Part shown: positions 16,658 through 43,986 of the stretch, piece by piece
Layout: each line of letters begins with the position of its first letter
How positions within the stretch are numbered: the stretch's first letter is position 1
Assembly: GCA_040755415.1 (NCBI GenBank)
Contig: JBFMAZ010000082.1
Location: 148-64,147 of the forward strand
Reading direction: 5' to 3'
Source: Thermodesulfobacteriota bacterium
GTDB lineage: Bacteria; Desulfobacterota; QYQD01
Length of the DNA: 64,000 nt
Notes under the pieces: model-generated
Databases searched by the model: none
Seen by the model: the letters and a program-made list of their open reading frames with translations, nothing else
Told to the model about the DNA's origin: nothing
Program-made: the position numbers and the translations under genes

Positions 16658-16864
16658 ATTTGCGAAGCGTATGACTCCGTGACCATCTGACCCGGATAGG
16701 TAAAACTCCTGTCTAATCATTTTTTGAAGTGATGACATCTGGGTAAGCCGGCCGGGTAAATCAGGCGTCTAATTAAATAAAAAAACTTTCAACAGGATTG
16801 GCATAATTAGACAGTCTTTTTGTTTCGTCAGTTGTTGAATTTAACATGAAAGGAGGTGAAAAAG

Positions 16865-17278
16865 ATGAAAAAACTAGCAATTATTATGGCTGTAATCGCC
16901 TCTTTTTGCCTGGTAGCGGTGGCCTTTGCGGCAGAGCCGGATACGGTCACTATCAGCAGTAAGGCCTATGCCAAGCATACCAAGGGCCTGGTAAAATTCA
17001 CCCATAAGAAACATGCTGTTGATTTGAAGATCGGTTGTACCGACTGCCATCATGTCTATAAGGATGGCAAGAATGTCTGGAAGAAGGGTGACGCGGTAAA
17101 AAAATGTGATAGCTGCCACAGTGTGGCCAAACCCATGGCCCAACTCTCCCCACAGGAGAAGAAGCAATTGGCCTCACCGGAACTGGCATTTCATAAGAAT
17201 TGTAAGGAGTGCCACATGCAGGCCAAAAAAGAAGGCAAAAAAGCACCGGTGGCCTGTACAGAGTGTCACGGCAAGTAA
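16865..17278 (+). CDS. tetraheme cytochrome c3 family protein
   Basis: Signal peptide plus four CxxCH motifs (CTDCH, CDSCH, CKECH, CTECH). AGGAGG RBS lies 8 nt before ATG 16865; the ORF track GTG 16856 lies inside the RBS. Confidence 0.85.
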   Translation: MKKLAIIMAVIASFCLVAVAFAAEPDTVTISSKAYAKHTKGLVKFTHKKHAVDLKIGCTDCHHVYKDGKNVWKKGDAVKKCDSCHSVAKPMAQLSPQEKKQLASPELAFHKNCKECHMQAKKEGKKAPVACTECHGK

Positions 17279-26648: not shown

Positions 26649-26914
26649 GGTGTATATCTCCCAATATCTTATTTGCTTTTAGTGGGTTGACGATAATGAA
26701 TGTCATTAGTCAATAGTCATTTGTCACTGGTAAAAGGGGGGGTAATTTTCCGCACCTAACCAATGACCGATGACTAATGACCAGTGACGTTGCCTGTAGT
26801 TACTATACCCTAACGGTCATAAATGCAAATACTTTTTCCCGTTGTAAAGGTTCGAACGTCTGAACATGTTTTAAGATTAAGTTTGCCGAATCCCCTGCCG
26901 ATAGTACATATAAC

Positions 26915-27060
26915 TAGTCTCCATCCGAAAACCTCCCCTCCCCTAGCGGGAGGGGACTAAGGGGAGGGGGAACATCTCGAAATTGCATAACCTTTTCACC
27001 CCCACCCTAGCCCTCCCCCGTCAAAGGGGGAGGGATATAGGCTTTCCGGCTGGAACTAAC
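26915..27060. mobile_element. MITE-like element, family B variant
   Basis: TAGTCTCCATCCGAAAAC ... GGCTTTCCGGCTGGAACTAAC with GGGAGGGG-type hairpin modules. Confidence 0.7.
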
Positions 27061-27180
27061 TGGTTTCCATCCGAAAATCCCCCTGTATCCCCCTTTTCCA
27101 AAGGGGGATTTCAATATTTTCCCCCCTTTAGCAAAGGGGGGGGGTGGGGGGATTTGGCAGTTTCCGGATGGACACTAACT
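27061..27180. mobile_element. MITE-like element, family B, tandem to the previous one
   Basis: Near-identical to 16453..16570. It ends 27 nt before the fdhA-like ATG. Confidence 0.8.
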
Positions 27181-27206
27181 AGTAATTCCCCCTGGAGAGA
27201 GCACCC

Positions 27207-29234
27207 ATGCATAGCGTCTTAACCACCTGCCCTTTCTGTGCCTGCGGCTGCGGATTATATCTACACGTAGAAAATGAAAGGATAGTGGGTGTCACTCCCA
27301 GCAAGAAACACCCCATCTCCCGCGGCAACCTGTGCGTGAAGGGGTGGAACAGTATAGAGCACGTCCGGCATGCGGAGCGGCTGCGCGAGCCATTGATCCG
27401 AAAGAACGGGAAACTGTTCAGGACCGGCTGGGACCAGGCCCTCAAACGTGTTTCCCTTGAACTGCTCAAGATTAAGAAAAAATATGGGGGCGAATCCATA
27501 GGCATACTCTCCTCGGCCAAATGCACCAATGAAGAGAATTATCTCTTGATGAAGCTCGGCCGCGCCGTATTGAAAACCAACAACATCGACCATTGCGCCC
27601 GGCTATGCCACTCTCCCAGCGTCCTGGGGTTAACCAATGCCTTTGGTTCCGGGGCCATGACCAACTCCATCTCTGAGCTGGCCGGCGCCGAGGTCATCCT
27701 GGTCACCGGCTCCAACACCACCGAACAACACCCGCAGATTGCCCGCTTCATATTCGAGGCCCTGGACAAAGGCGCCAAACTGATCGTCATAGACCCCAGA
27801 CGCATCGAACTCAGCAGATTCGCCCATATCCATCTGAGGCCCCGCCTGGGTACAGACGTAATATGGCTGAACGGCATGATGAAAATCATCCTGGATGAGG
27901 GGCTGTTAGATGACTCTTTTATCAAGATGCGCACGGAGAATTTCCCGGAATTCAGGAAATTCCTCTCCCGGTTCGACCTGGGCCAGGTAGAGGCGATAAG
28001 CGGCATATCCCTGGAAGACCTGGGACGGGCCGCCAAGATTTATGCCGGCGCCAAAAGGGCCATCATTATATATTCTATGGGGATTACGCAGCATGTCTCC
28101 GGCACGGACAACGTGGAGTCCATCGCCAACCTGGCCATGATGACCGGCCACGTAGAACAGGAAATTACCGGCGTATTTCCCTTGCGCGGACAGAACAACG
28201 TACAGGGGGCCTGTGATATGGGCGCCCTGCCCGGAATGCTGAGCGGCTACCAGAGGGTTGATGATCCGGCCGTTCTGGATAAATTCTCACGGGCCTGGAA
28301 TACCGGCCTGCCTGCCGCCCCGGGGTTAAGCAGTGTGGATATGCTCCATGAGACAGGAAGAATAAAAGGCATGTTTATCATGGGAGAAAACTCCATGTTA
28401 AGCCACCCGGATATGAAAAACGTCAGGGCTTCCATGGAACATCTGGATTTCCTGGCCGTGGCGGATATCTTCCTTACCGAAACCGCGGAAGTCGCAGATG
28501 TAATCCTGCCTGCCGCCGCCTTTGCCGAGAAAGACGGCACGGTAACCAGTACGGAGCGGCGCATCCAGAGGATGCGGAAGGCCATCCCGCCCGTCCACCT
28601 GTCTAAACCGGACTGGCAGATAATTATCGAGTTGGCCCGGCGCATGGGATACCCTATGGACTACGAATCCCCAGCCGAGGTCATGGAGGAAATCGCCTTG
28701 CTCACCCCCATCTACGGGGGCGTTTATTATGACCGGCTGGAGACAATCCAGGGGCTGCAATGGCCGTGCCCTGACCGCAATCATCCCGGAACGACATATC
28801 TGCACAAAAAATCATTCGCGCGGGGTAAGGGGCTGTTTTCCTGTATCGCTTACCGGCCGCCGGACGAAACGCCTGACAAGAAATATCCCTTTGCCTTGAC
28901 GACGGGACGCGTGTATGAACACTGGCATACCGGCACTATGACCAGAAGGATATCCATATTGAAACGGGAATGCCCGGAAGGGTTTATAGAAATAAGCCCC
29001 GCAGATGCGCGGGCATTGGGAATAATAAATGGAGAGCCGGTCAAGGTCATCTCTCCCCGCGGAGAAGTGACTACCAGGGCCAGATTAGTCGAGGGCCTCC
29101 CCGGTAAAACGCTCTTTATGCCCTTTCACTTCCGGGAGGCCCCGGCCAATGCATTGACCAACCATGCCGTCGATCCCCAGGCCCGGATACCGGAGCTGAA
29201 GATATGCGCCGTGCGCCTGGAAAAGGTGACCTGA
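27207..29234 (+). CDS. molybdopterin oxidoreductase, formate dehydrogenase alpha-like (cytoplasmic, Cys-type)
   Basis: N-terminal 4Fe-4S motif CPFCACGCG...C. Active-site region HCARLCHSPSV aligns with the CARVUHGPSV type, with Cys in place of Sec. No Tat signal; 675 aa. Confidence 0.85.
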   Translation: MHSVLTTCPFCACGCGLYLHVENERIVGVTPSKKHPISRGNLCVKGWNSIEHVRHAERLREPLIRKNGKLFRTGWDQALKRVSLELLKIKKKYGGESIGILSSAKCTNEENYLLMKLGRAVLKTNNIDHCARLCHSPSVLGLTNAFGSGAMTNSISELAGAEVILVTGSNTTEQHPQIARFIFEALDKGAKLIVIDPRRIELSRFAHIHLRPRLGTDVIWLNGMMKIILDEGLLDDSFIKMRTENFPEFRKFLSRFDLGQVEAISGISLEDLGRAAKIYAGAKRAIIIYSMGITQHVSGTDNVESIANLAMMTGHVEQEITGVFPLRGQNNVQGACDMGALPGMLSGYQRVDDPAVLDKFSRAWNTGLPAAPGLSSVDMLHETGRIKGMFIMGENSMLSHPDMKNVRASMEHLDFLAVADIFLTETAEVADVILPAAAFAEKDGTVTSTERRIQRMRKAIPPVHLSKPDWQIIIELARRMGYPMDYESPAEVMEEIALLTPIYGGVYYDRLETIQGLQWPCPDRNHPGTTYLHKKSFARGKGLFSCIAYRPPDETPDKKYPFALTTGRVYEHWHTGTMTRRISILKRECPEGFIEISPADARALGIINGEPVKVISPRGEVTTRARLVEGLPGKTLFMPFHFREAPANALTNHAVDPQARIPELKICAVRLEKVT

Positions 29235-30493
29235 TGACCGATAAACTCATTCTGTACAAAGAACACCTGAACAGCTTCCTGCGTAAGATAACCAAGGGAT
29301 TTGAACTCATAGCGCCGGTCCGGAATACCTACGGGGATACGTTATTCGAGGTTATTCCGTCTGTAGATGACGTCGGCATCGATCTGACTAATCGCCCCAT
29401 CCTCTCTCCCAAACGTTTCTTCATGCCGCAAGTGGAGACGCTTTTTGCATACCGTTATGATAAATCCGGTTATACATTTAAAGATACGGCAGACAATACA
29501 CCCCGGGTCATCTTCGGCCTTCGCTCCTGTGACACGCGAGGGATACTCTTTTACGATCTGATCTTTCAGGAAGGCCTGAAGGACAAATATTACCTGGATC
29601 GGCGCAGGGACACCATCCTTATCAATTTAGGCTGCAACCAGCCCGGAGAAAACTGTTTCTGCAAGAGCGCCCAGAGTGGCCCTTTTTTGACTTACGGCTA
29701 TGATATACAGTTGACGGATCTCGGTGATAGATTCTTTGTCGAAATCGGCCGGCCGCGGGGCCGGGAACTCCTGGCCGGATGGTCTTACTTTTTCCGTCCG
29801 GCTACACAAGCGGATATAGACGCGCAATATGAGGCAGTCCTGGAATCGGAGGGCAGATTCCGGCACCGCCTCGATTTCGATGCCGCCATAGAAAAACTCA
29901 TAAACCAGAAGGTTGATCCGGCCATATGGGAAGAACTGGGCAGACGCTGTCAGAACTGCGGGGGATGCGCCTATGTCTGCCCCACCTGCTATTGCTTCAA
30001 TATGTTCGATAGCCCATGTTCTGAAAAAGAAGGGGAACGCCTCAGAACCTGGGATGCCTGCACCTTTGCCGGTTTCAGCAGATTGGCCGGAGGATACAAC
30101 CCGCGCCAGGATAAGGCCCAGCGGATAAAAAGGCGCTTTTATCACAAGTTGTTCTATGACAAACAGAAGTATAACATCCCCAGTTGTGTGGGCTGCGGCC
30201 GCTGCGCGGACATCTGTTTTGGCCGTATAGACATGCTCAGCTTCATCCGCCTGATCTGCGAACAGAAAGAGAAGTCGCCGGCCCCCGCCCACCGGAGGCT
30301 GGGAGAACTGCTTCTTGAGGCCGGAATCATCAGCCAAAAAGATCTGGATTCGGCGATAGAAAAACAGGCCGCGACCGGGAAACCCCTGGGTGTTCAATTG
30401 GTGGAAATGGGCGTGGTGGATAAGGAAGCGATTGCCGGGGCGCTCGGCTGCCAACTAAAGATACCCGGCACAGCAAAAAATGTAGAAGACTAA
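29234..30493 (+). CDS. 4Fe-4S dicluster subunit (AsrA / sulfhydrogenase-beta-like) with C-terminal MshEN-type c-di-GMP-binding motif
   Basis: CQNCGGCAYVCPTC and CVGCGRCADIC ferredoxin motifs. C-terminus RLGELLLEAGIISQKDLDSAIEKQ. ATG 29234 overlaps the fdhA stop (TGATG); the ORF track start 29204 is less likely. Confidence 0.75.
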   Translation: MTDKLILYKEHLNSFLRKITKGFELIAPVRNTYGDTLFEVIPSVDDVGIDLTNRPILSPKRFFMPQVETLFAYRYDKSGYTFKDTADNTPRVIFGLRSCDTRGILFYDLIFQEGLKDKYYLDRRRDTILINLGCNQPGENCFCKSAQSGPFLTYGYDIQLTDLGDRFFVEIGRPRGRELLAGWSYFFRPATQADIDAQYEAVLESEGRFRHRLDFDAAIEKLINQKVDPAIWEELGRRCQNCGGCAYVCPTCYCFNMFDSPCSEKEGERLRTWDACTFAGFSRLAGGYNPRQDKAQRIKRRFYHKLFYDKQKYNIPSCVGCGRCADICFGRIDMLSFIRLICEQKEKSPAPAHRRLGELLLEAGIISQKDLDSAIEKQAATGKPLGVQLVEMGVVDKEAIAGALGCQLKIPGTAKNVED

Positions 30494-30514
30494 GAAGTCC
30501 GCAGGGCAACAGAG

Positions 30515-31345
30515 ATGAACAACAATGTCTATCTCCCCCAAATCGCCGTTATTAAGGATATAAAGGAAGAAACCGGCGACATAAAGACCTTTACCCTGGC
30601 GTTTAAGGACAGGAAATTTAAAAACTCCTTTTCCTTCCGGCCCGGCCAGTTCATGATGGTCTCCGTCTTCCAGGCCGGCGAGGTCCCGATATCCATAAGC
30701 TCTTCCCCCAGTCAACCGGAGAATTTGCAGTTAAGCATAAAAAAGGCCGGTGCTTTAACCGGGAAGATACATGGGCACAAGGTCGGTGATGAGATCGGTC
30801 TGCGGGGGCCTTACGGCCGGAGTTTCCCCGTGGAAAGGCTGATCGGAAAGAACCTCTTGTTTGTGGCCGGAGGCATAGGGCTGGCCCCCTTGCGTAGTCT
30901 GATTAACTATGTGCTGAATAACAGAACGGAATTCGGCCAGATTACTATCCTGCATGGGGCGAGAACCCCGTCGGATATTCCGTTCAAACATGAACTGTCC
31001 CGCTGGCCCAAAGAAAGGGATGTTAAAGTCCTGGTGACCGTGGACCGCCCTGATACCGGATGGAAAGGAAATATAGGCCCGGCTACCGCTTTGTGGGACA
31101 AGACAGGTATTTCCAGCCGGGACACTATAGCCGTTATCTGCGGCCCGCCGGTAATGATCTCCTTTGTGGTTATGGATCTTCTCAAGATGGGATTTTCTGA
31201 AGATGATATTATCTCCACCTTGGAAAGACACATGAAATGCGGAGTGGGCAAGTGCGGGCATTGCAGCATTGGCCACCAACTAACCTGTGTGGACGGCCCG
31301 GTCTTTACCTACCGGGAGATGAAAGAGCTGCCGACAGATTTGTAA
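30515..31345 (+). CDS. FAD/NAD(P)-binding oxidoreductase with 2Fe-2S cluster (AsrB / sulfhydrogenase-gamma-like)
   Basis: RPGQFMMV FAD-binding pattern, GGIGLAPL NAD(P) motif, C-terminal CGVGKCGHC...C cluster. Confidence 0.8.
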   Translation: MNNNVYLPQIAVIKDIKEETGDIKTFTLAFKDRKFKNSFSFRPGQFMMVSVFQAGEVPISISSSPSQPENLQLSIKKAGALTGKIHGHKVGDEIGLRGPYGRSFPVERLIGKNLLFVAGGIGLAPLRSLINYVLNNRTEFGQITILHGARTPSDIPFKHELSRWPKERDVKVLVTVDRPDTGWKGNIGPATALWDKTGISSRDTIAVICGPPVMISFVVMDLLKMGFSEDDIISTLERHMKCGVGKCGHCSIGHQLTCVDGPVFTYREMKELPTDL

Positions 31346-31371: not shown

Positions 31372-31698
31372 TCATAATCCAAACATTTTTCTTAGTATAG
31401 ATCTTACAGCCACGAACTCTGACTCCGCCAATGTCCCCAACCTCTTCAAGATATATTTCTTCTCGATTGTCGCCTGCTTGCCGAGCCTGATGTATGATTC
31501 TGCAAGAAGGCCGCTTCCCCTCCACTCCACAATTTTATAGTCCATTCCCGTGCTATATTCTTGAGTGGTTATCCGCGCTACAAGGACATCCAGATCACCT
31601 GCGTCATATAGAACGAGAGCGGGCCTTTTGGAAACGCCCTGCAAATCGGTTTGAGGGAAGCCGACGAGCACAACATCGCCGAAGTTATAAGTTGTCAT
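31372..31698 (-). CDS. type II toxin, PemK/MazF family
   Basis: FGDVVLVGFP...KRPALVL N-terminal pattern; 14-nt overlap with the upstream small ORF. Confidence 0.75.
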   Translation of the reverse strand: MTTYNFGDVVLVGFPQTDLQGVSKRPALVLYDAGDLDVLVARITTQEYSTGMDYKIVEWRGSGLLAESYIRLGKQATIEKKYILKRLGTLAESEFVAVRSILRKMFGL

Positions 31699-31888
31699 AC
31701 ATGGCGTCCTTTTCAGAATAGCCTTTCATAAATTCGGCAACTGTAAAGTTGCGCCAAATTGATTCCTCATCTTCGAGGAGCAGCATAACACGTATTTTTG
31801 ATTCCCCCGTCAATAGCCTCCTTATTTTGTCCGGAATTGACAAGTGTCCATCCGGCAGTATCTCTGCATAGTATTCATAGGCTTTCAT
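31685..31888 (-). CDS. antitoxin (AbrB/MazE-like swapped hairpin)
   Basis: 67 aa with DGHLSIPDKIRRLL motif, located upstream of and overlapping the MazF-like gene. Confidence 0.6.
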   Translation of the reverse strand: MKAYEYYAEILPDGHLSIPDKIRRLLTGESKIRVMLLLEDEESIWRNFTVAEFMKGYSEKDAMYDNL

Positions 31889-32014: not shown

Positions 32015-35000
32015 CTAATGTGACGTCTCCTCGATTGTATTATAAATTTCGTCAATTTTTTTCTGTACCTCTATGGTCTTTTGAATTGCAGTGACAATTC
32101 TGCAATAAGTCCGTATCTCGTCAAGGGACAGTATTCGCTCTTTTCTGTCCTTAAGCCATTTATCGCAGACCTGATAACCGCCGATTTGATAAGCCCATAC
32201 ATCAGGGGGAATGCCTTCAAAGTATTGTGCCTTGTTGATGAAAAGGAGACCAAATCCCCCCTCACCCCCCTTTACTAAAGGGGAGATATTGTGAGAAGAA
32301 TCCTTGCTTCCCCTCTTTGGCAAAGAGGGGTTAAGGGGAGATTTTTCGAATAATTCATATCTCAACTTTTCTACCCTGTTATCCCCTTTCCCCTGAAATC
32401 TTGCAATCGGTAAATCGAGGTCAGCCGATTTAAGCAGGTGCAGGTCAACAAGCCTGTTGCCATAGTCGGACATTTTCTCGAACAGCTTGTAGTCCTTTGT
32501 AAACGGCACCCTTGGAAAGTCTATCTTCAGGAACGCTGCATATTTTGTCCTGTAAGTCTCTGAATAAAGAACGGCATAAATGTAATAGAAGATTTCCTCA
32601 GGGGAAGGAGTTTTCTTATAGGCTTTTGATAATTCATCAATAACCTTGGCAGATAAGTTAGTCTTTTTTACTCCATAATCTGCCTTCGGTTCAAACAGCA
32701 TCAATACGCCGCCAAAGGACCGCTTCTTTTTATCCTTGACTTGATAGATATAGAGAGGAAAAAGATACGACCGTTCTCGTGTCTCTAACGAGACGGTACA
32801 GTCGTTAATAATGCTGTTCGTACATAACGCGTGTTTAAATTCTGCATTGATCTGGCGATTTGTGATCACCCCTAAGTTCTCTTTCAACATATGCTGCATT
32901 ACTTCTTTCCGGGATCGCTCAATGACTGCGTCGTGGTAGAAAATCCACCGCTCATCGAATGGGCGATACAATATCTTTGTAATGGCTTGATCCCAGTCAG
33001 GATCTTTGACGACGCGCTCCCTCGCATCTCTCAGTGTCCAGTTAGTTTTATCTTTCAGTTTATAAGTCTGTTGTATTATTTCATCAGGTAATTTCTTGTC
33101 CCTGAACTGCAATATTCTTCTCCGCAGTCGATCCCGATCAAAATCAATAACGAATTCATCGCGTGAGGTTACGATCCCCACACTGCTCACCGGAAAGATA
33201 TCGGTAATCTTCATGTGCCTTTCATAAACAGATGACAACTTTTCATCGCGGGGGAAGAACAGATAGAATTCGGATTTAGGGGAAAGCCTCTTCCATTTGG
33301 TTGTTGTAATATCGTGCTTATTAAGCCAATTGTATTTCTTTTCTCTGAGCCCCCATAGTTCGGAATGGAAAACTTTTGACCCGCCTCTTAACCTCCCTTT
33401 GCCAAGAGGGGTTTTCTTGATAAAGACAGCAATAGCAACTCCTTGCTGAATATCAAAGACATTCTCATCTCTTGACCCGTCAGGGCCTTTTTCCTTCTTG
33501 AGGCTGTTGCCGTGCAGGTCAAGGATATACATCACGTCGAAACTCCGCATCAGCGACTGACGCATCCCCCTAAAAGTCGGATTATCGAGATAGCTGTGGT
33601 TTGTAATAAACCCGAGGACCCCTTGGCCGGCCTGATCGATCTTCCACTGGGCAAAACGGATGAACTTTACATAATCGTCCTGAAGCCACTTGGGGTTCTT
33701 TTCATTAAGCGGTCTCCCATCGACTTGATGGTACGCCTTAATCTCGCTTGAGATCCAGTCACCGATATTTGACGAATGTCCCGAATAGGGCGGGTTTCCC
33801 AGAATCACGAGTATTGGTTGTTCTTTCTTCACCAGACCGGCCAGATGAGACTCTTCAGACAATGAGGCCATCCCGGGCAGTTCTGTTTGAGCCACCTCTT
33901 CCATTTCGAGCGTATTGGTAAGATAAAGTTTCACCCGGTCATCCCTCTGTAACCTGTACTCTAATTCCTCCAGAAGGAAAGACATCTTCAGATGCCCGAC
34001 GGCATAGGGGGCCATCATCAATTCAAAGGCATAGAGGTTTTTCAGGATATGTTCTTTTATAAAATTCTCCCTGCCTCCCTCTCCGTATTTGGAAACAAAT
34101 TCATCAATTGCAAGTTTTGCCGCCTCTGCCAAAAAGGCAAGCGTTCCTGCCGCAGGGTCTAAGACAGTCACGTTCTTATCTGCAAATCCATCAGGTTTAT
34201 TGAAATGCCCTTTCAGAATGTTATGTAAGGAGCGGACTATGTAGGAAACCACAGGCTCAGGCGTGTAATACACACCCCTCATCTCCCTTGTCTTCGGGTC
34301 ATACGCGGCAAGGAAGGTTTCGTAGAAATGAACGATAGGGTCTTTCCCTTTGCCCTCATGGAAAAATTGATGAAGTATCTTGCTCACATCCGTGAGGGAA
34401 AGGATTTCCGATATATCATCAACAATCCATTCCATCTGCTGGGGGAGGGCGCCCAATGAAACAAACTGGAAAACGTCTCTCAGTATTCCAATTGTTTGGG
34501 GTATGTTGTGATAGGCAAGTTTCCTATTGAAGCCATTTTCTGAACGAGTCCTGGCTGCAAATAGGCCGTAGGTGATAGTCTGTGCGTAAAGGTCCGAGAA
34601 TTCGTCTTCCGTAAGGCCGCTGATAAGATAATCCTTAAAAGCCTTGTAAAATCCCCTGATAAATCCCTTGCCTGCACTCTGTTCTTCCCTCAGTTCCTGC
34701 GCTATAACCTCATCCTTTAAAAAGCGTGTCCTTTTGGCAAGTTCAACGGCAAGGTTCTTTGCGTCATATACTTTCGGTAACGAAAAGGAAAAGAACTTTC
34801 CCAGCAGTTGCAGGAATTCAGGTTCCTTTTCGACAGGTGGGGTAGTTTTCAGCTTATGAACTACGTATGGCCTTCCGACAATGACTTTATCCGTTCTGAC
34901 ACCGTTATGGTAAAGCCTGAACTCAAAGAAATTGGTAAGAATAACATTCGGAAAAGTATGCAAGTATCTCTTTAGCTGCTCTGTTTCCTCTATCCTGTCA

Positions 35001-35302
35001 AGATTTTCAATGGTAGGGTCTTTAGCCTCAATGTATCCCGTGATATGTTGTTTGCCGTCCCACACTCTGAAGTCCGGATTACCTGCTTCCGTCTTTTTGG
35101 GAAGAATCGTTATATGAAAATTTTTCTTTCCGGTTAAGCCGCAATACCCATCAAGAAGAGATTTCAGGACCGGGTAATAGCTTTCTTCCCTTGCATCCCC
35201 TCGTGTGCCGGCATCGGCTATCTGTTTTAAATAGTCTTTAAGCATGACCAACCTATCGATGATTTCCGGGCCGGCGCTCGTAGCCTCGTTGATTCTCAAC
35301 AT
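32015..35302 (-). CDS. single-chain type IIG/IIL (MmeI-like) restriction-modification enzyme: PD-ExK nuclease + N6-adenine methyltransferase + C-terminal specificity domain
   Basis: PDFRVWDGKQHITGYIEAKD (D-X9-ExK as in the MmeI family), AdoMet motif VLDPAAGTLAF, catalytic NPPY (ILGNPPYSGH). C-terminal IGGYQVCDKWLKDRK is typical of type ISP/IIG specificity domains. Confidence 0.8.
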   Translation of the reverse strand: MLRINEATSAGPEIIDRLVMLKDYLKQIADAGTRGDAREESYYPVLKSLLDGYCGLTGKKNFHITILPKKTEAGNPDFRVWDGKQHITGYIEAKDPTIENLDRIEETEQLKRYLHTFPNVILTNFFEFRLYHNGVRTDKVIVGRPYVVHKLKTTPPVEKEPEFLQLLGKFFSFSLPKVYDAKNLAVELAKRTRFLKDEVIAQELREEQSAGKGFIRGFYKAFKDYLISGLTEDEFSDLYAQTITYGLFAARTRSENGFNRKLAYHNIPQTIGILRDVFQFVSLGALPQQMEWIVDDISEILSLTDVSKILHQFFHEGKGKDPIVHFYETFLAAYDPKTREMRGVYYTPEPVVSYIVRSLHNILKGHFNKPDGFADKNVTVLDPAAGTLAFLAEAAKLAIDEFVSKYGEGGRENFIKEHILKNLYAFELMMAPYAVGHLKMSFLLEELEYRLQRDDRVKLYLTNTLEMEEVAQTELPGMASLSEESHLAGLVKKEQPILVILGNPPYSGHSSNIGDWISSEIKAYHQVDGRPLNEKNPKWLQDDYVKFIRFAQWKIDQAGQGVLGFITNHSYLDNPTFRGMRQSLMRSFDVMYILDLHGNSLKKEKGPDGSRDENVFDIQQGVAIAVFIKKTPLGKGRLRGGSKVFHSELWGLREKKYNWLNKHDITTTKWKRLSPKSEFYLFFPRDEKLSSVYERHMKITDIFPVSSVGIVTSRDEFVIDFDRDRLRRRILQFRDKKLPDEIIQQTYKLKDKTNWTLRDARERVVKDPDWDQAITKILYRPFDERWIFYHDAVIERSRKEVMQHMLKENLGVITNRQINAEFKHALCTNSIINDCTVSLETRERSYLFPLYIYQVKDKKKRSFGGVLMLFEPKADYGVKKTNLSAKVIDELSKAYKKTPSPEEIFYYIYAVLYSETYRTKYAAFLKIDFPRVPFTKDYKLFEKMSDYGNRLVDLHLLKSADLDLPIARFQGKGDNRVEKLRYELFEKSPLNPSLPKRGSKDSSHNISPLVKGGEGGFGLLFINKAQYFEGIPPDVWAYQIGGYQVCDKWLKDRKERILSLDEIRTYCRIVTAIQKTIEVQKKIDEIYNTIEETSH
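32245..32350. mobile_element. family B hairpin element inserted in frame inside the RM gene
   Basis: ACCAAATCCCCCCTCACCCCCCTTTACTAAAGGGG...CCCCTCTTTGGCAAAGAGGGG. It is translated as FEKSPLNPSLPKRGSKDSSHNISPLVKGGEGGFG. Confidence 0.7.
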
Positions 35303-35525: not shown

Positions 35526-35702
35526 TTATTCCGGAGCGATCAGTTGAAACCCGCAATTTTCGCAGTAGAAAAACCCATCCTGGGTCTTGTCTGCGCTATA
35601 GGTATTCAGATGACCACAGTTAGGACAAACAATGTACATGCCCTCTTCAAGCTCCTGGAGCTCAAAGTTTCCCTGAACATCAATGGACACCCTTCCCTTC
35701 AT
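35526..35702 (-). CDS. small zinc-ribbon protein (58 aa), not in the ORF track
   Basis: My translation is [58 protein letters not shown]. Its ATG overlaps the SOD stop (ATGA). It carries CPNC...CENC. Confidence 0.5.
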
Positions 35703-36313
35703 AATCCCTCCAGTCTCTTGTTCACCTCATCCCAATTAACAATGTTCCAGAAGGCCTCGACAAATTTGGCCCTATCGTTCTTATAATCGAGATAGTACGC
35801 ATGTTCCCAGACATCAATAACCATGAGTATTTTGAACATGGGATAAACGTTTATATTGTGCTTTTCCACCTGCATAATGATGGGCCTGTTGGTCTTCCTG
35901 CAGAAGGTCAGGGCCGCCCACCCGGAACCTTCTACGCTCACGGCCGTCTGGGTAAATTCCCTTTTGAACCGATCAGGGCCGCCGAATTCTTTTGCTATAA
36001 CGTCGCCGATTGTCCCTCCCGGCATTCCACCACCCTTACCAGCCGGAGCCAGGTTGCCCCAGAATAACGAGTGCAACAAATGTCCGCCTATGTGGAATGA
36101 CAGTTCCTTTAGGGTCGATTTCATATCTAGATCAGCCCCGTCTTTTCTGGCCTTATCCAGCCTCTCCAGTATGGCGTTGGCGCCATTAACGTAGGCCAGA
36201 TGGTGTTTGTCGTGGTGTATCCTTAGTTGTTCTTCTGATATGTGCGGTTCCAAGTCCTTGTATCCGTAAGGCAGCTCCGGCAGGGTATATAATCTCGATG
36301 TTTCCATTGACAC
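35699..36313 (-). CDS. Fe/Mn superoxide dismutase
   Basis: [28 protein letters not shown] and [11 protein letters not shown] motifs. Confidence 0.9.
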
Positions 36314-37610: not shown

Positions 37611-38270
37611 ATGGATGCCGAGCTTACCCCAAGACAGACCTTCTTTAACCTCCCACCGGACAAGCAGCAGCGCGTCCTGGAGGCGGCCGTTCAGGAGTTT
37701 TCCGAGCGAGGCTACCAGCAGGCCAGCATTAACACCATAGTCTCCCGCGTGAATATCGCCAAGGGTTCCATCTACCAGTACTTCGACAGCAAAAAAAGCC
37801 TGTTTCTCTTTATCTTCAATCAGGGCATTGCCTTGGTACGGCAAATGCTGAAGCATGTCAAAAAAGAGAGTCAGGGAGAAGATTTTTTCACGCGGGTAAA
37901 GAAATCCCTTATGGCCGGCGTTGAGTTCATAGATAAGCATCCGGCCCTCTACCGGGTTTATCTCCGCATCCTTTTCGAGCGCGATTCTCCTCTACGGGAA
38001 GATTTTCTGCAAACGATAAGGCTTTTCTCCCGCGAGTACATCCTCTCCCTTTTGGAAGAGGGGCAGGCAAGGGGTGAGGTCAGAAAAGACCTGGACCCCG
38101 TGTTGGCTGTGTTTATTCTAGACGCGGTATTAGATAAATTCCTGCAGAACTATGCCCTGCCCTATCTTGATCCGGCCCTGGAGTTAAACAAGGAGAAAGG
38201 CCTGGAAGGAAAAATCGACAGCATCGTAACCTTGCTGCGGCAAGGATTCGCCGCAGCAGATGGGAGTTAA
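37611..38270 (+). CDS. TetR/AcrR family transcriptional regulator
   Basis: N-terminal HTH FSERGYQQASINTIVSRVNIAKGSIYQYF. Confidence 0.85.
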   Translation: MDAELTPRQTFFNLPPDKQQRVLEAAVQEFSERGYQQASINTIVSRVNIAKGSIYQYFDSKKSLFLFIFNQGIALVRQMLKHVKKESQGEDFFTRVKKSLMAGVEFIDKHPALYRVYLRILFERDSPLREDFLQTIRLFSREYILSLLEEGQARGEVRKDLDPVLAVFILDAVLDKFLQNYALPYLDPALELNKEKGLEGKIDSIVTLLRQGFAAADGS

Positions 38271-39423
38271 CATGGACATGGACCGGTCGAAAGGAGAGCC
38301 GTGGTGGCAAGAGATACGCGGCAAGGTCGAGGCCGGTGAAAGGTTATCCTTTGAAGACGGGCTGAGGCTTTACCAATCCAATGACCTTCTGGCCATCGGC
38401 ACCCTGGCCAATGCGGTACGCCGCCGTCTGAACGGCAATAAGGCATTTTACATATACAATCAACATATCAACTATTCCAATATCTGCGTCAATCGCTGCC
38501 GTTTTTGTGCCTTCGGCAAGGACAAGGGCGATCCGGCCGCGTATGAAATGTCCACTGAGGAGATAGTCGGCAAGATTCAAAAACGCCGCCATGAGCCGAT
38601 AACCGAGGTGCACATCGTAGGCGGGATACATCCTGACCTGCCTTATCGCTATTATGTGGAGATGATCCGGGAGATCAAAAAGGCACGGCCGGAGATCCAT
38701 ATACACGCCTTTACCGCCGTAGAAATCGCCCATCTGGCCAAGATCTCCGGACAAAGTATATCCGATACGCTCTGCGACCTGCGCGAGGCTGGGCTAGGTT
38801 CGCTTCCGGGCGGCGGCGCGGAGGTCTTCAGCCCCCGCATAAGGGAACGCCTCTGTCCCAAAAAACTATCTCCGGAAGGCTGGTTGGAAGTGGCCAAGAC
38901 CGCGCATCGCCTCGGCATCAAGTCCAACGCCACCATGCTTTACGGGCATATCGAGTCTGCGGAAGAAAGGGTCAGCCATCTTCTGTCCTTGCGCCGGACC
39001 CAGGATGAGACCGGCGGCTTCATGGCCTTTATTCCCCTGGCCTTTCATCCGCGAAACACGGAGCTTTCCGACCTCTCTAACACCACCGGTTTTAATGACC
39101 TTAAAAATATCGCCATCGCCCGTCTCCTGCTCGATAATTTTCCGCACATCAAGGCCTACTGGGTAATGATCGGCCCCAAACTGGCCCAGATCGCCCTTAA
39201 TTTTGGCGCAGATGATCTGGATGGAACGATCATCGAGGAAAAGATCACCCACATGGCCGGTGCGGAGACGGCCCAGAGGATGACCCGCGCAGAACTCCAG
39301 CGTTTAATCCATGAGGCGGGATGTACGCCGATAGAACGGGACACCCTGTACAATGCTATCCTAAATGTTACGCAGTCAGCGAATAACGACCAGCCTGGCA
39401 AGAAAGCTTTTGCTGAAAGCTGA
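38260..39423 (+). CDS. mqnE: radical SAM aminofutalosine synthase (MqnE-like)
   Basis: NQHINYSNICVNRCRFCAF cluster motif, 387 aa. The MqnE versus MqnC assignment rests on NxHIN versus NRNIN signatures recalled from the families. Confidence 0.7.
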   Translation: MGVNMDMDRSKGEPWWQEIRGKVEAGERLSFEDGLRLYQSNDLLAIGTLANAVRRRLNGNKAFYIYNQHINYSNICVNRCRFCAFGKDKGDPAAYEMSTEEIVGKIQKRRHEPITEVHIVGGIHPDLPYRYYVEMIREIKKARPEIHIHAFTAVEIAHLAKISGQSISDTLCDLREAGLGSLPGGGAEVFSPRIRERLCPKKLSPEGWLEVAKTAHRLGIKSNATMLYGHIESAEERVSHLLSLRRTQDETGGFMAFIPLAFHPRNTELSDLSNTTGFNDLKNIAIARLLLDNFPHIKAYWVMIGPKLAQIALNFGADDLDGTIIEEKITHMAGAETAQRMTRAELQRLIHEAGCTPIERDTLYNAILNVTQSANNDQPGKKAFAES

Positions 39424-39496
39424 CTGTCGAAGATTCGCCGGTATTGTGGCGAGCTGATAGCTAAATGCTTATGTACATATTCATCGAGGCCCGGCA

Positions 39497-40552
39497 ATGA
39501 ATTACGATTTGTGGCGCAGAAAAATAGAACATAGCGAAAGGTTCTCGAAGGCAGAGGCCCTGGAACTTTACAGCCATCCGGATATCCTTGTCCTTGGAGA
39601 ACTGGCCGACCTGAAACGCCGCCTACTCAACCCCAAAAGGCTGGTCACCTACATCATTGACCGCAACATCAATTATACGAATATATGCATATCGGGATGC
39701 CGGTTCTGCGCTTTCTTTAGAGAAGACGGGGCACAGGGAGGCTATGTCCTGACCAGGGAGGAGCTGGCACGGAAAATAGAGGAGACCCTCTCCCTGGAAG
39801 GCGTACAGATACTCCTTCAGGGCGGCTTGCACCCTACCCTGCCCTTTTCTTTTTATGAAGAGATGCTTGCCTTTATTAAAAGTGAGCATCCCATACATAT
39901 ACATGGCTTTTCGCCTCCGGAGATTGTGCACATGTCCCGGCAGTCCGGGCTGGGTATCGGCGATGTACTGCGACGGCTGCGCGCGGCCGGGCTCGACTCT
40001 ATACCGGGCGGAGGCGCGGAGATATTGGTGGACAGAGTAAGACAAGCCGTATCTCCACGGAAATGTTCAGCAGATGAATGGCTGGCAGTTATGGAAGAGG
40101 CGCATCGGCAAGGAATTAAAACTACGGCCACGATGATGTTCGGCCATGTAGAGACTATCGAAGAGCGCATTGAACACCTTATGCGTCTTCGTGAGCTTCA
40201 GGATAAGACTCAGGGGTTCACGGCCTTTATTCCCTGGCCTTTCCAGCCGCATAATACCCGCATAAACGTTGTTTCCATGGGAGGCGTCGAATACCTCCGC
40301 ATGCTGGCTGTTTCCCGGGTCGTCCTGGACAATATCCCCAATCTACAGGCCTCCTGGGTTACCCAGGGGCCTAAGGTGGCGCAGGTGGCCCTTGCCTTCG
40401 GCGCCAACGACTTCGGCAGTACCATGATCGAAGAAAATGTAGTGGCGGCTACCGGCGTCTCTTATCAGTTGAGCGAAAAGGAAATCAGGCGCATCATTGC
40501 CGACGCCGGTTATGAGCCGGCCCGCAGAAATATGGCCTATGAATTGCTTTAA
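39497..40552 (+). CDS. mqnC: radical SAM cyclic dehypoxanthinyl futalosine synthase (MqnC-like)
   Basis: DRNINYTNICISGCRFCAF motif, 351 aa, paralogous to the preceding gene. Confidence 0.7.
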   Translation: MNYDLWRRKIEHSERFSKAEALELYSHPDILVLGELADLKRRLLNPKRLVTYIIDRNINYTNICISGCRFCAFFREDGAQGGYVLTREELARKIEETLSLEGVQILLQGGLHPTLPFSFYEEMLAFIKSEHPIHIHGFSPPEIVHMSRQSGLGIGDVLRRLRAAGLDSIPGGGAEILVDRVRQAVSPRKCSADEWLAVMEEAHRQGIKTTATMMFGHVETIEERIEHLMRLRELQDKTQGFTAFIPWPFQPHNTRINVVSMGGVEYLRMLAVSRVVLDNIPNLQASWVTQGPKVAQVALAFGANDFGSTMIEENVVAATGVSYQLSEKEIRRIIADAGYEPARRNMAYELL

Positions 40553-41861
40553 GCCATCAGCCATCAGCTATCAGCTATCAGCCCGGGAGGTAGCTGAAGG
40601 CTTTAGCCTGCGTAAGTTATCAGCAAACAGCGATCGTCTGCCAGCAGGCAGTAGGCAAATAAAAATCCACCGTGCCAAATGGGTCTTTCCTGTATCTTCA
40701 CTGCCGGTTAGTGACGGCGCGGTTGTGGTTGCCGATGGCCGCATAGAGGCCGTGGGCCGGTTTAAGGACCTCAGGGAAGCCTATAAAGGCGATGTGGTTG
40801 ATCATGGAGAGGTAGGCATCCTGCCGGCCCTGGTCAACGCCCATACCCATCTTGAACTCGCCGCCCTGCGAGGACGTCTGTCTGGAAAGGATGGTTTTGT
40901 TAATTGGATTAGGGTGCTCATCAAAGTGCGGGAGGACATACCGCCGGCAGAAATAGAAAAGGCAATAACTAATGAACTCGCGGCCATGCACCAGCAGGGC
41001 GTCGGCCTCATTGGCGATGTAGGTAATACCCGGATGGCTTATGAGTTATGCCAAAAACAAAAGATAAAGACTGTTTTTTTTCGCGAGTTCCTGGGCTTTA
41101 ACCGGGCGAAGACGGCAAAGGCCAAGGAAATGCTGGCAGAAGCCGGTAAATCGCATGAGACCGACAATGCATTTCATGTGGCTGCCCATGCCCCATACAC
41201 CGTCTCTGCCGAACTGTTTTCAGCCCTCAAGTCGTGGGCTAATAAGCACGGGAAGATGCTCTCCGTGCACCTGGGTGAATGCTTGGAGGAGCAAGAACTC
41301 CTTGCGCATGGAAACGGATCATTGAGAGACCTGCTCAGTGAGCGTTCAGCCTGGGATGATGATTTTATTCCGCCAGGGAAGAGCACAGTGGCCTATCTTG
41401 ATAAACTCGGCGTCCTGGACAATAACACGGTCTGTGTACATCTCGTGCACCTGTCAGAGGAAGATATGGCAATTCTGGCTACCCGCAGGGTAAAATGCTG
41501 CCTCTGCCCCAGGAGTAATCTCTTTCTCAACGTCGGCTTCCCGAAGGTGGAAAAGATGCTTACCTATGGGCTGTACCCGGCCCTGGGAACAGATAGCCTG
41601 GCCAGCAATGAGAGCCTCAGCATCTTAGAAGAGATGGCGGCCATCAGAAAACACATGCCCGGCCTGGCCCCGGAAAAAATACTGGAGATGGCCACCCTGA
41701 ACGGCGCCCGGGCCCTTGGCCGGGAAGACCGGCTGGGCAGTCTGACGTCGGGAAAGGAAGCCGGGATGATCTCTGTCCCAGCCGGCGGAGAAGGCAGCCG
41801 GGAAGCGCTTGAAGGCATAATGGATCGTGCCGCAACTATACCGGTACGTTGGATACAATGA
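40539..41861 (+). CDS. amidohydrolase family protein (possible aminofutalosine / nucleoside deaminase); start uncertain
   Basis: VNAHTHLEL metal-binding motif, HLGE, VHLVH, GTDSLASN. There is no ATG/GTG/TTG near the conserved N-terminus IKIHRAKWVFPV. Confidence 0.7.
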   Translation: MNCFKPSAISYQLSAREVAEGFSLRKLSANSDRLPAGSRQIKIHRAKWVFPVSSLPVSDGAVVVADGRIEAVGRFKDLREAYKGDVVDHGEVGILPALVNAHTHLELAALRGRLSGKDGFVNWIRVLIKVREDIPPAEIEKAITNELAAMHQQGVGLIGDVGNTRMAYELCQKQKIKTVFFREFLGFNRAKTAKAKEMLAEAGKSHETDNAFHVAAHAPYTVSAELFSALKSWANKHGKMLSVHLGECLEEQELLAHGNGSLRDLLSERSAWDDDFIPPGKSTVAYLDKLGVLDNNTVCVHLVHLSEEDMAILATRRVKCCLCPRSNLFLNVGFPKVEKMLTYGLYPALGTDSLASNESLSILEEMAAIRKHMPGLAPEKILEMATLNGARALGREDRLGSLTSGKEAGMISVPAGGEGSREALEGIMDRAATIPVRWIQ

Positions 41862-41951
41862 ACTACCCCGCAGCAAGCTACGGGGAATTTAACCCAATAA
41901 CTTACGAAAATCTGTGTAATCTGCGTAATCTGTGGATTAAAAGGAACAAAA

Positions 41952-42800
41952 ATGGAACAGATTAGAATTGGCAAATTCAGTTTTATTAACACCAGCCCTA
42001 TATATTACCCACTCGAACACATAGTAGGCCTAAACGGCTTTCAGGTTATAGAGGGATCCCCTTCGGAACTAAACGCCCGCTTTTTCCGAGGGGAATTGGA
42101 CATCAGCGTCATATCCTCACAGGAATACGGTCTCCATGCGGAAAAATACTTCCTCCTCCCTGAACTGGCCATTGTCTCGCAGGGAACGGTCAAAAGCGTG
42201 CTCTTTTTCAGTAAGTATCCGCTTAAGGCCCTCAGCGGACGCCGCATCCTTATAACCGAGAAGTCACAAACCTCGGTAGCCCTCCTGAAGATTATCTTGG
42301 AAGAATTTTATGAGGTATTTCCCATTTATGAGACAGGCGACCTGTCCGCGAAAGACGTCCATTCCCGGGAGGTCGCCGGCTTTCTGGCTATCGGCGACGA
42401 GGCCCTCAGGTTTCGCATCGAGAGTCAGGAGCCTTATATTATTGACCTCGGCGAGACCTGGAAGAAGTTTGCCGGCCTGCCTTTTGTATATGCAGTGTGG
42501 GCAGTGCGGCGGGAATTCTATAATCAGTTTCCGCAGAAGGTATGGGAGGCCTGCCGCCTCCTTAAAGAGTCACGGGATAAGGGCCTTAAGACCCTGGAAA
42601 AGATCGGAGGCCGTTTTGCTTCACATATACCCATGTCCAAGGAGGCCTGTCTGGCCTACTTGCGAACCCTGTGTTTTGACTTAACCCCGGAGGCGCTGGA
42701 GGGAATGAGGCTGTTCTTCCGCTATCTGGTCAAACGCGGGGAATACCCTTCTCCGGTGAACATAGAATTTGTACCGCAACTAGACGGGATGACGGCCTGA
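41952..42800 (+). CDS. mqnA: chorismate dehydratase MqnA-like (VitK2 biosynthesis family)
   Basis: IRIGKFSFINTSPIYYPL...PSELNARFFRGELDISVISSQEY pattern. Confidence 0.7.
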   Translation: MEQIRIGKFSFINTSPIYYPLEHIVGLNGFQVIEGSPSELNARFFRGELDISVISSQEYGLHAEKYFLLPELAIVSQGTVKSVLFFSKYPLKALSGRRILITEKSQTSVALLKIILEEFYEVFPIYETGDLSAKDVHSREVAGFLAIGDEALRFRIESQEPYIIDLGETWKKFAGLPFVYAVWAVRREFYNQFPQKVWEACRLLKESRDKGLKTLEKIGGRFASHIPMSKEACLAYLRTLCFDLTPEALEGMRLFFRYLVKRGEYPSPVNIEFVPQLDGMTA

Positions 42801-43697
42801 ATGTCAGATGAAACACTCGTGTCTCAAAGAGACACAAAGAACAATGGAGAAAATCCCCCCTCACCCCCCTTTAATAAAGGGGGGGATACATTAAGTCCTC
42901 TTTTGAAAAAAGGGGGAGAGCCGTCAAATCCCCCTTTGGGAAAAGATGGAGGCCCATCAATTCCCCCTTTGGAAAAGGGGGATACAGGGGGATTTTCTGG
43001 TGAAAAGAAAGCCTTCGTAGAAAAGAAATTTTCATCCATCACCCCGCGCTACGATTTCCTTAATTCCTTGCTGAGTCTAAATATTGACCGCTACTGGCGA
43101 TGGGTGACCGCCCGTGAGTTAGACAATTATACGGGGGGACCAATTCTCGACCTCTGCGCCGGCACACTGCCCTTAAGCCTTAGCATAGCCGGACGCAGGC
43201 CCGAACGATATGTGTTGGCCCTCGATCTCTGCCGGGATATGCTGGCCTACGGTCGCAACAGACTAAATGGCCGGGTAGCAGGCCGGCAAATTATCCCGAT
43301 TTGTGCAGACGGAGAAGAAATACCCTGTTGCGATAATAGCTTTTCCGGGATTACCGTGGCCTTTGGAGTGCGTAACCTGAGCAATCTGGATAAGGGCCTT
43401 AAGGAGATGTGGCGCGTCCTCCGGCCCGGGGGGAAACTGGTCATCCTTGAGTTTTCTCGCCCTAAAAATCCGGTCATGCGGACGCTTTATTTTTTCTACC
43501 TCATGCGGATCCTGCCATATATCGGCGGCCGGATATCTGGCGACGAAGAGGCTTACCGCTATCTGGCGAATTCTATCCGCCTCTTTTACTCGCCGGAAGA
43601 ATTAGCGCAAAAAATGAAAAATACCGGTTACGTAAAGGTAACCTATCGCCCGCTCACGGCCGGTATAGTGACTTTATATACTGGAGAAAAGCCTTGA
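42801..43697 (+). CDS. menG: demethylmenaquinone methyltransferase (UbiE/MenG) with repeat-derived N-terminal extension
   Basis: Conserved core starts at KKFSSITPRYDFLNSLLSLNIDRYWR. SAM motif ILDLCAGT. About 65 aa upstream of the core are encoded by a family B element. Confidence 0.85.
   Translation: MSDETLVSQRDTKNNGENPPSPPFNKGGDTLSPLLKKGGEPSNPPLGKDGGPSIPPLEKGDTGGFSGEKKAFVEKKFSSITPRYDFLNSLLSLNIDRYWRWVTARELDNYTGGPILDLCAGTLPLSLSIAGRRPERYVLALDLCRDMLAYGRNRLNGRVAGRQIIPICADGEEIPCCDNSFSGITVAFGVRNLSNLDKGLKEMWRVLRPGGKLVILEFSRPKNPVMRTLYFFYLMRILPYIGGRISGDEEAYRYLANSIRLFYSPEELAQKMKNTGYVKVTYRPLTAGIVTLYTGEKP
42819..43009. mobile_element. family B element (three hairpin modules) inside the menG reading frame
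   Basis: GTGTCTCAAAGA...GGGGGATACAGGGGGATTTTCTGGTGAAAAG. Its right end matches the left end of 16453..16570 in inverted orientation. Confidence 0.75.
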
Positions 43698-43759
43698 TAT
43701 TCACCGCGGAGAACATAAAGAAAACATCTCAAATCTGAAATTTGAGATTTGAAATTCTT

Positions 43760-43921: not shown

Positions 43922-43986
43922 AAATTCTTCTCTTTGCGTGCTCTGCGCTAAATATTACATTCCGAGCGCTAAAAGGGAGGTTCGCT

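Follow-up and report, generated by a model that had tools for sequence, protein, structure and literature searches.

A predicted c-di-GMP receptor domain of the MshEN_N type at the C-terminus of the iron-sulfur subunit of a formate dehydrogenase-like complex in Thermodesulfobacteriota

A 64-kb stretch of contig JBFMAZ010000082.1 (assembly GCA_040755415.1) of a Thermodesulfobacteriota bacterium, in the following called the window, contains the genes for a soluble three-subunit formate dehydrogenase (FDH) / CO2 reductase, FdhA-beta-gamma (positions 27207-31345), and the iron-sulfur (Fe-S) subunit beta of this enzyme carries a C-terminal tail that belongs to the MshEN family of cyclic di-GMP (c-di-GMP) receptor domains. 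The domain identity, the fold, the conservation, and the operon context of this tail are established. The receptor domain itself is known, but its attachment to a central C1 redox enzyme appears to be undescribed, and an FDH, an enzyme of carbon and energy metabolism, may be under direct second messenger control. We propose, with a probability of roughly 55%, that the helix bundle formed by the tail would bind one c-di-GMP in the same manner as MshE, and that a resulting change in docking would modulate the activity, the assembly, or the location of the FDH. An earlier reading of the DNA, which was made from the sequence alone (the sequence-only reading), had claimed an MshEN-type module on the Fe-S subunit of an FDH-like complex. 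This claim is now backed by a curated profile, by profile matches to proteins in the PDB, by the superposition of predicted folds, and by the conservation of the fusion in fdh operons. The analysis covered the window with a list of open reading frames (ORFs), profile searches with Pfam and NCBIfam, AlphaFold models, and Foldseek.

The longest ORF that covers the tail spans positions 29204..30493 of the forward strand and encodes 429 amino acids (aa), which are used here for residue numbering. The encoded protein ends with ...ICEQKEKSPAPAHR-RLGELLLEAGIISQKDLDSAIEKQ-AATGK-PLGVQLVEMGVVDKEAIAGALGCQ-LKIPGTAKNVED*, and the Fe-S core ends with FIRLIC directly before the linker EQKEKSPAPAHR, which is followed by RLGELLLEAGIISQKDLDSAIEKQ (Table 1). 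The linker is not conserved in alignments, and its predicted local distance difference test (pLDDT) values are <50 at residues 356-364. The tail contains two copies of the 24-residue MshEN motif, the strict form of which is RLGxx(L/V/I)(L/V/I)xxG(L/V/I)(L/V/I)xxxxLxxxLxxQ, while the form used for membership begins with (R/K/L)LG. Both copies lie within the last 65 residues, their starts are exactly 29 residues apart (24 + 5), and together they form a core of 53 residues. As described by the sequence-only reading, motif 1 starts with R365 at nucleotide 30296, the stop codon ends at 30493, and the sole deviation of motif 1 from the strict form is one conservative exchange of L to I, at position 21 (MshE L29). 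The spacer of five residues is likewise present; it is AATGK (residues 389-393), and its TG(K/R) is shared with MshE and PilF. What had been taken for a second half-motif, however, is a complete 24-mer ending in Q (residues 394-417), which deviates at position 1 (R to P) and at position 17 (L to I). When the window was translated in six frames, the relaxed motif (Wang et al., 2016) had two matches only, which start at residues 365 and 394. Its chance frequency in shuffled ORF sequence is ~2.4e-6 per residue and, because of this low rate and the exact register, the two copies cannot be attributed to chance. The protein ends 12 residues past motif 2, and therefore only the four-helix subdomain MshEN_N is present. 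The LKIP of the C-terminal peptide is the counterpart of LSLP of MshE, which forms the entry to the MshEN_C subdomain that is absent here, and the C-terminal residues 421-429 have pLDDT values <50.

Profiles and predicted structures lead to the same assignment. The model NF053729 ('cyclic di-GMP-binding domain-containing protein, MshE-related') was matched with 57 bits (cut-off 38, E = 1.2e-15); the match of NF053729.1 comprised residues 365-415 and model positions 1-51 of 53, and the tail alone scored 60.8 bits. The tail could also be aligned to the NfrB model at positions 481-538, which belong to the C-terminal region that binds c-di-GMP. Its sequence matches in the PDB were exclusively N-domains of ATPases of type IV pili (T4P) and type II secretion systems (T2SS). 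Vibrio cholerae MshE (5htl_A) was found with the single tail sequence at E = 3.8e-7, and a profile of 36 homologous tails (A2) matched MshE (5HTL) at E = 1.7e-14 and PilF at 2.3e-35. The alignment of tail and MshE is in register with MshE residues 6-65. AlphaFold predicted four tail helices in the order short/long/short/long (residues 366-372, 378-391, 395-401, and 407-418) with a pLDDT of about 80. When superimposed on c-di-GMP-bound 5HTL (chain 5htl_B in Foldseek), the tail of the full-length model deviated by 1.9 Å (61 columns) and the tail-only model by 0.7 Å (54 columns). The respective values for PilF GSPII-B were 0.8-1.5 Å, with a Foldseek probability of 1.00. The identity of the tail in the MshE and PilF superpositions was 36-46%, and the top 17 Foldseek matches of the tail-only model were all GSPII/MshEN domains.

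A profile search with PF05157/MshEN models had been proposed as a check, and its outcome was divided. The MshE-related model detected the tail, but PF05157 matched neither the whole beta protein nor the tail even at E <= 1, and Pfam otherwise yielded just a weak sub-threshold match to DUF4388. The Pfam MshEN model lacks the domain's initial three helices (Wang et al., 2016; PMC5013675), and the null result, which does not count against an MshEN-type module, is explained by the fact that the model mainly covers the MshEN_C subdomain. A second protein encoded in the window, a ParA/MinD-type ATPase, represents the opposite case, because its PF05157 match is a T2SSE_N1-like alpha/beta region without the 24-residue c-di-GMP motif. 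Therefore, PF05157 does not report on the same subdomain as the c-di-GMP motif. The tail of beta is not a full MshEN domain, which consists of MshEN_N and MshEN_C/T2SSE_N1; the alpha/beta subdomain is missing, and the tail is MshEN_N only, like EpsG, Bd2402, and cce_1044. As PF05157 misses MshEN_N-only fusions, similar fusions may be under-annotated elsewhere.

The tail is conserved in part of the beta family. In a sample of the best 120 clusters of homologues it is present in 40 (409-432 aa), and the other proteins have ~345 aa and terminate directly behind the Fe-S core. With the window protein added, 41 tailed proteins were compared, and 38 of these have a 53-residue core without gaps, down to an identity of 45%. 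Among these 38 cores, no exchange occurs at G18, G40, and G47 (MshE numbering), positions L10 and L39 are occupied by L or I throughout, and G11 is G in 33 and A in five. The subclade of the window protein (25 sequences) has retained both Gln, all four Gly, and all hydrophobic contacts. Tail and Fe-S core have diverged to about the same extent (e.g., identities of tail/core of 83/94%, 59/63%, and 50/51%). Many tails of the window subclade (P0004-P0023) continue past motif 2 with a conserved Gly-rich sequence, LKIPExAGTGGxxGR, and the window clade ends with LKIPGTAKNVED.

Among the GTDB species representatives, the tail was found at 17 loci, all of which are in metagenome-assembled genomes of Thermodesulfobacteriota, 'Desulfobacterales' or Thermodesulfobacteriaceae. 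Tailless operons are chiefly found in Desulfobulbia. The fusion is known so far solely from uncultured Thermodesulfobacteriota. Whether it is conserved in orthologous fdh operons had been raised by the sequence-only reading, and it is: at 23 of 23 tail-bearing loci both immediate neighbors of beta are present in the order fdhA-beta-gamma. Tailless loci (66) have fdhA upstream in 64 cases and gamma downstream in 65. As tailless sister operons exist, the tail can be viewed as an optional regulatory add-on. In a crude neighbor-joining tree the tailed proteins form two adjacent groups with few interspersed tailless proteins (P0024-26, P0112, P0044, P0104), and this topology suggests an old gain of the tail and later losses.

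The identity of the enzyme follows from all three subunits. The fdhA product scored 795.7 bits with TIGR01591 (cut-off 666.25), i.e., the equivalog threshold was passed, and it contains the Pfam domains Molybdop_Fe4S4, Molybdopterin, and Molydop_binding. No signal peptide was found in FdhA, the N-terminus of which is directly formed by the Fe4S4 domain. The active site reads ARLCHS, and its Cys is aligned to an in-frame TGA (selenocysteine) at the related loci L001, L003, L008, and L009, where the active-site TGA has caused fdhA to be split into two gene calls (133 + about 540 aa). The enzymes of these four loci are selenocysteine FDHs, while the window enzyme is of the Cys type; the type does not track with the presence of the tail. 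The likely start of beta is the ATG at 29234 (M11), which is the start in most beta homologues. It overlaps the fdhA stop codon as TGATG, and this overlap suggests translational coupling. Beta was matched by PF17179 (Fer4_22) with 103.6 bits (cut-off 27), and 14 of its Cys are invariant across the homologues and one is nearly invariant. Its AlphaFold model (pLDDT 83.7) matched the beta subunit of Pyrococcus furiosus sulfhydrogenase I (SHI; 9nf0_B) with a template modeling (TM) score of 0.88 and E = 4e-28. The description of beta as AsrA/HydB-like agrees with this fold match and with the matches to the HydB/ShyB/AsrA equivalog models, though the scores are far under the cut-offs (NF040833 189/750, NF040829 181/690, TIGR02910 166/323). 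Beta is a paralogous family with the same fold as HydB and AsrA that is distinct from both. The gamma subunit contains NAD_binding_1, DHODB_Fe-S_bind, and FAD_binding_6 and scored 249 bits with NF006220 and 217 bits with TIGR02911, each under the respective cut-off. The earlier assignment to an FDH-like context is therefore borne out on both sides, by the above-threshold TIGR01591 match upstream and by the HydG/AsrB-like subunit downstream. The enzyme is most plausibly linked to NAD(P)(H). In some relatives the operon is followed by a gene for RACo, a hint of a connection to the Wood-Ljungdahl pathway.

The binding site of MshE can be traced in the tail position by position. The residues that contact c-di-GMP in 5HTL are L10, G11, G18, L25, L29, and Q32 as well as L39, G40, G47, L54, L58, and Q61 (Wang et al., 2016; PMC5013675). 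Their equivalents in the tail are L366, G367, G374, L381, I385, and Q388 as well as L395, G396, G403, I410, L414, and Q417. Hence, every contact position is occupied by the consensus residue or by a conservative change, and none of the listed XpsE-type disabling substitutions is present. The isolated MshEN_N subdomain (MshE residues 1-62) binds c-di-GMP with a dissociation constant (Kd) of 0.35 uM without the C-subdomain (PMC5013675). An Arg at motif position 1 is dispensable, because PilF GSPII-B has Lys and Leu at the first motif positions and binds c-di-GMP more tightly (PMC11731258), and the Pro at this position of motif 2 is permitted by the relaxed motif (PMC5013675). By analogy, the tail is likely to be competent for binding.

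In the mechanism that we favor, the 53-residue bundle would be tethered to the C-terminus of beta by the flexible linker of ~12 residues and would take up one c-di-GMP, with each 24-residue motif holding one guanine. Contacts to the guanines would come from the Leu/Ile clusters, from backbone amides at both LG glycines, and from Gln388/Gln417. Upon ligand binding, the bundle would dock in a different way, either on the enzyme or on a partner protein, and FDH activity, assembly or location would in this way be tied to the cellular c-di-GMP level. A precedent is NfrB, in which c-di-GMP bound to the C-terminal MshEN domain allosterically activates the glycosyltransferase domain (PMC8669469). From the affinity of isolated MshEN_N domains (~0.35 uM) we infer that the tail would bind the ligand, and a regulatory effect on the FDH, as well as its direction, is more weakly indicated. 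That c-di-GMP directly binds the electron-transfer subunit of an FDH/CO2 reductase and thereby switches its activity or assembly is given slightly less than an even chance.

Several observations weigh against this mechanism. A motif match alone is insufficient for binding, as is exemplified by PilF GSPII-A, which has near-consensus motifs and an extended alpha1 stabilized by an N-cap, and fails to bind c-di-GMP (PMC11731258). In the tail-only AlphaFold model alpha1 runs through HRRLG, while it starts at L366 in the full-length model. The former arrangement resembles an apo state, the first turn of which would have to unwind before the ligand could bind. In a distant subclade (P0028-P0043, Thermodesulfobacteria-like) Q32/Q61 are often replaced by R/K/N/E, position 1 is hydrophobic, and G11 is replaced by Ala in five sequences, and still the bundle is kept. 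The loss of contacts in a retained bundle suggests a use as a scaffold beyond ligand binding. Furthermore, tailless orthologues are common, and the tail is therefore dispensable for catalysis. Lastly, a crude regex scan revealed no GGDEF, EAL, HD-GYP, or PilZ, either in the window or within +-6 kb of 15 tail-bearing loci; as the method is crude, this absence is weak negative evidence. In two distant relatives (L001 and L003), genes for putative c-di-GMP phosphodiesterases with an HD-GYP domain (Table 1) are located 6-7 kb upstream of the tail-bearing FDH operons, which may reflect local signaling or coincidence.

The distant subclade and the fact that c-di-GMP turnover genes are unlinked in most neighborhoods are also arguments for the strongest alternative, namely, that the tail is a ligand-independent bundle of the MshEN_N/GSPII type that serves protein-protein docking, oligomerization or stabilization of the complex and binds no nucleotide. 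GSPII N-domains without c-di-GMP binding are known, i.e., XpsE and PilF GSPII-A, and N-domains of PilB bind PilZ proteins; 7lkm entries were among the structural matches of the tail. However, a purely structural bundle would not need the ligand contacts, all of which are kept by the 25 sequences of the window subclade. In contrast to GSPII-A, no capping box (S/T/D-xx-E/Q/D) precedes the RLG of the tail (sequence SPAPAHR-RLG), and a C-subdomain that could lock alpha1 is absent as well. In addition, the curated model for the c-di-GMP motif was passed by 19 bits. Taken together, a ligand-independent bundle seems unlikely, though it deserves to be taken seriously. Distinctly less probable is another cyclic dinucleotide as ligand of the tail, e.g., 3',3'-cyclic GMP-AMP (cGAMP). 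In related deltaproteobacterial lineages (Geobacter-type Desulfobacterota), Hypr-GGDEF/cGAMP signaling controls genes for exoelectrogenesis and electron transfer, which speaks in favor of cGAMP. The two motifs of the tail are, however, nearly symmetrical, and both have the LG backbone-amide site that reads O6/N7 of guanine. MshEN_N does bind cGAMP measurably (Kd 3.3e-4 M), but its affinity is ~660-fold below that for c-di-GMP, and c-di-AMP is excluded (PMC5013675). That the motifs match by chance, or that the tail is a read-through extension of beta without a function, would fit the tailless orthologues that function in the same operon type and the PF05157 null result. This reading is extremely improbable and was rejected on the conservation data, i.e., on the lack of gaps over 40 clusters and among 17 representatives of GTDB species at identities as low as 45%, to which the rarity of the motif (~2.4e-6 per residue, yet two copies in exact register), the profile E-value of 1e-15, and a helix bundle predicted with good confidence can be added.

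Comparison with characterized systems underscores what is shared and what is special. MshEN_N of V. cholerae MshE (5HTL; PMC5013675) likewise consists of two 24-residue motifs with a five-residue spacer that form a four-helix bundle of 53 aa, and the beta tail is 36-38% identical to it (rmsd 0.7-1.9 Å), with the contacts conserved or conservatively replaced. In MshE, however, the domain is located at the N-terminus of a T2SS/T4P ATPase, while it is C-terminal on a Fe-S redox subunit in beta. Moreover, the beta tail lacks MshEN_C (T2SSE_N1), its motif 2 opens with Pro instead of Arg, and ligand binding is predicted only. The nearest solved match is GSPII-B of Thermus thermophilus PilF (8PDK, 8PKZ; PMC11731258) with an identity of 42-46% and 0.8-1.5 Å over 52-55 columns. 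PilF differs from beta in that it is a traffic ATPase with three tandem GSPII domains, each of which has a C-subdomain. Escherichia coli NfrB (PMC8669469) resembles beta in having an enzyme-linked C-terminal MshEN module, but there the module is a full MshEN domain and the enzyme a membrane exopolysaccharide synthase. The module of beta comprises MshEN_N only and sits on a soluble subunit that transfers electrons in a redox enzyme of several subunits. The Fe-S core fold and the Cys pattern of beta are shared with P. furiosus HydB (9NF0/9NEZ) and AsrA (TM 0.88, 31% identity), which are also partnered by a HydG/AsrB-type FAD/NAD(P) gamma subunit. In contrast to beta, the catalytic partner of HydB and AsrA is a [NiFe] hydrogenase or a sulfite reductase instead of FdhA, and both lack a C-terminal tail. 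The same three-gene architecture is found in the FdhA-HydB-HydG cluster of Desulfurivibrio dismutans, which has been proposed to encode an NAD(P)H-linked CO2 reductase / FDH (PMC12142623), and in the tailless operons of Desulfobulbia. In these organisms beta ends after the Fe-S core (~345 aa), while the window clade adds an MshEN_N tail of 65-75 aa. The sole earlier listed combination of MshEN_N with a redox enzyme that was found is Acaryochloris marina AM1_1657 (UNK-TrxB-MshEN_N; Supplementary Table 4 of Wang et al., 2016). It also carries MshEN_N at the C-terminus of a redox enzyme, but it is a cyanobacterial flavoprotein disulfide reductase without Fe-S or FDH context, and it is uncharacterized too.

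To our knowledge, nearly all known c-di-GMP effectors act in motility, secretion, exopolysaccharide synthesis, transcription, or the cell cycle. The compiled MshEN fusions comprise ATPases, REC, HD-GYP, CheA, CheX, cyclases, kinases, glycosyltransferases, a peptidase, and one TrxB-like flavoprotein, and Fe-S, hydrogenase or FDH proteins are absent from them (Wang et al., 2016; PMC5013675). Full-text literature searches for MshEN together with formate dehydrogenase or ferredoxin, and for c-di-GMP together with an FDH receptor, retrieved nothing relevant, and the same was true for a literature search on the SHI cryo-EM paper. A search of a set of 5.8 billion proteins with profile A2 yielded just 25 short stand-alone MshEN_N fragments and was uninformative on other redox fusions. 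A phmmer search with the tail against 1.8 billion representatives gave 3728 matches, and the best 150 of these 3728 contain no ferredoxin motifs; they are multi-repeat MshEN_N proteins in which the repeats sum up to high scores. Close homologues of beta are named merely '4Fe-4S dicluster domain-containing protein' by NCBI. If the proposed function is true, it would be the first case, within the literature searchable, of a nucleotide second messenger that acts directly on a core C1/energy redox enzyme, and it would add a metabolic enzyme to the known MshEN_N architectures. Central anaerobic carbon and energy metabolism would be under direct post-translational second messenger control, and in Thermodesulfobacteriota that reduce sulfate or live syntrophically, the formate/CO2 flux would be linked to signaling of a biofilm or aggregate lifestyle. 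Such control would act either on the reduction of CO2 that feeds the Wood-Ljungdahl pathway or on the oxidation of formate and on interspecies formate transfer. The small soluble tail and the natural tailless orthologues as built-in controls make it a directly testable case. A confirmed function would surprise specialists; at present the function is a predicted one, and the fusion is known from uncultured organisms only.

Table 1. Features of the FDH operon, the beta tail, and other genes mentioned in the text. Coordinates are window positions, except for the last row, in which they refer to the loci given.
Feature	Coordinates	Strand	Basis
fdhA, catalytic subunit of a cytoplasmic formate dehydrogenase with molybdo/tungstopterin, Cys type	27207..29234	+	TIGR01591
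beta core, HydB/AsrA-like Fe-S electron-transfer protein, residues 11-352 of longest ORF	29234..30259	+	PF17179, Foldseek
Linker EQKEKSPAPAHR, residues 353-364, variable, Pro/charge-rich	30260..30295	+	AlphaFold, alignments
MshEN motif 1 RLGELLLEAGIISQKDLDSAIEKQ, residues 365-388, predicted alpha1 + alpha2	30296..30367	+	
Spacer AATGK, residues 389-393, five residues	30368..30382	+	
MshEN motif 2 PLGVQLVEMGVVDKEAIAGALGCQ, residues 394-417, predicted alpha3 + alpha4	30383..30454	+	
C-terminal peptide LKIPGTAKNVED and stop codon	30455..30493	+	
gamma, HydG/AsrB-like FAD, NAD(P), [2Fe-2S] protein	30515..31345	+	Pfam
MazF/PemK toxin and small upstream ORF (putative antitoxin), just downstream of operon	31372-31888	-	
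Type ISP restriction-modification enzyme, 1095 aa, downstream of operon	32015-35302	-	
Class III (c3/c7-type) multihaem cytochrome	16856-17278	+	
Fe/Mn superoxide dismutase	35699-36313	-	
Futalosine-type menaquinone biosynthesis cluster	38260-47073	+	
ODP-type metallo-beta-lactamase-fold protein	47632-48813	-	
ParA/MinD-type ATPase (AAA_31), PF05157 match at residues 19-94	51353-52567	-	Pfam
REC-(GAF)-HD-GYP genes, putative c-di-GMP phosphodiesterases	L001 1-1277; L003 95-1132		

The neighbors of the operon are unrelated to it. Upstream, an alpha/beta hydrolase is encoded on the opposite strand, and the genes downstream are listed in Table 1. A search of the window with Rfam revealed no c-di-GMP riboswitch and one tRNA only, and a scan for promoters and terminators around the operon performed no better than on shuffled sequence. 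The multihaem cytochrome and the superoxide dismutase fit an anaerobic, sulfate-reducer-like organism with an oxygen defense. The menaquinone cluster comprises two radical-SAM CofH_C/MqnC-E-like genes, an amidohydrolase, VitK2_biosynth, UbiE, UbiD, a UbiX-like flavoprotein, and UbiA.

A composite repeat array is located at 26911-27183, directly upstream of the fdhA start, and related copies are present near 16459-16533 and 48862. Its components are two direct repeats of 27 nt (TAACTnGTyTCCATCCGAAAAyC...), a partner in inverted orientation (27160-27183), and three G/C hairpins. The array core TCCATCCGAAAAYC occurs four times in the window, compared to 0.14 expected occurrences. The array may represent an insertion into the FDH promoter region that resembles a miniature inverted-repeat transposable element or a repetitive extragenic palindrome. 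A palindromic element, CCCCCTTT-N3-AAAGGGGG, has 21 matches at about 13 sites of the window versus 0.17 expected; it was found at 5700, 16482, 16514, 27089, 27122, 32265, 42864, 42963, 43827, 45518, 45617, and 57243. Some copies lie inside long ORFs, e.g., the copy in the type ISP gene encodes '...SPLVKGGEGGF...', and others lie in the unaligned N-terminal extensions of the UbiE-like and UbiX-like ORFs.

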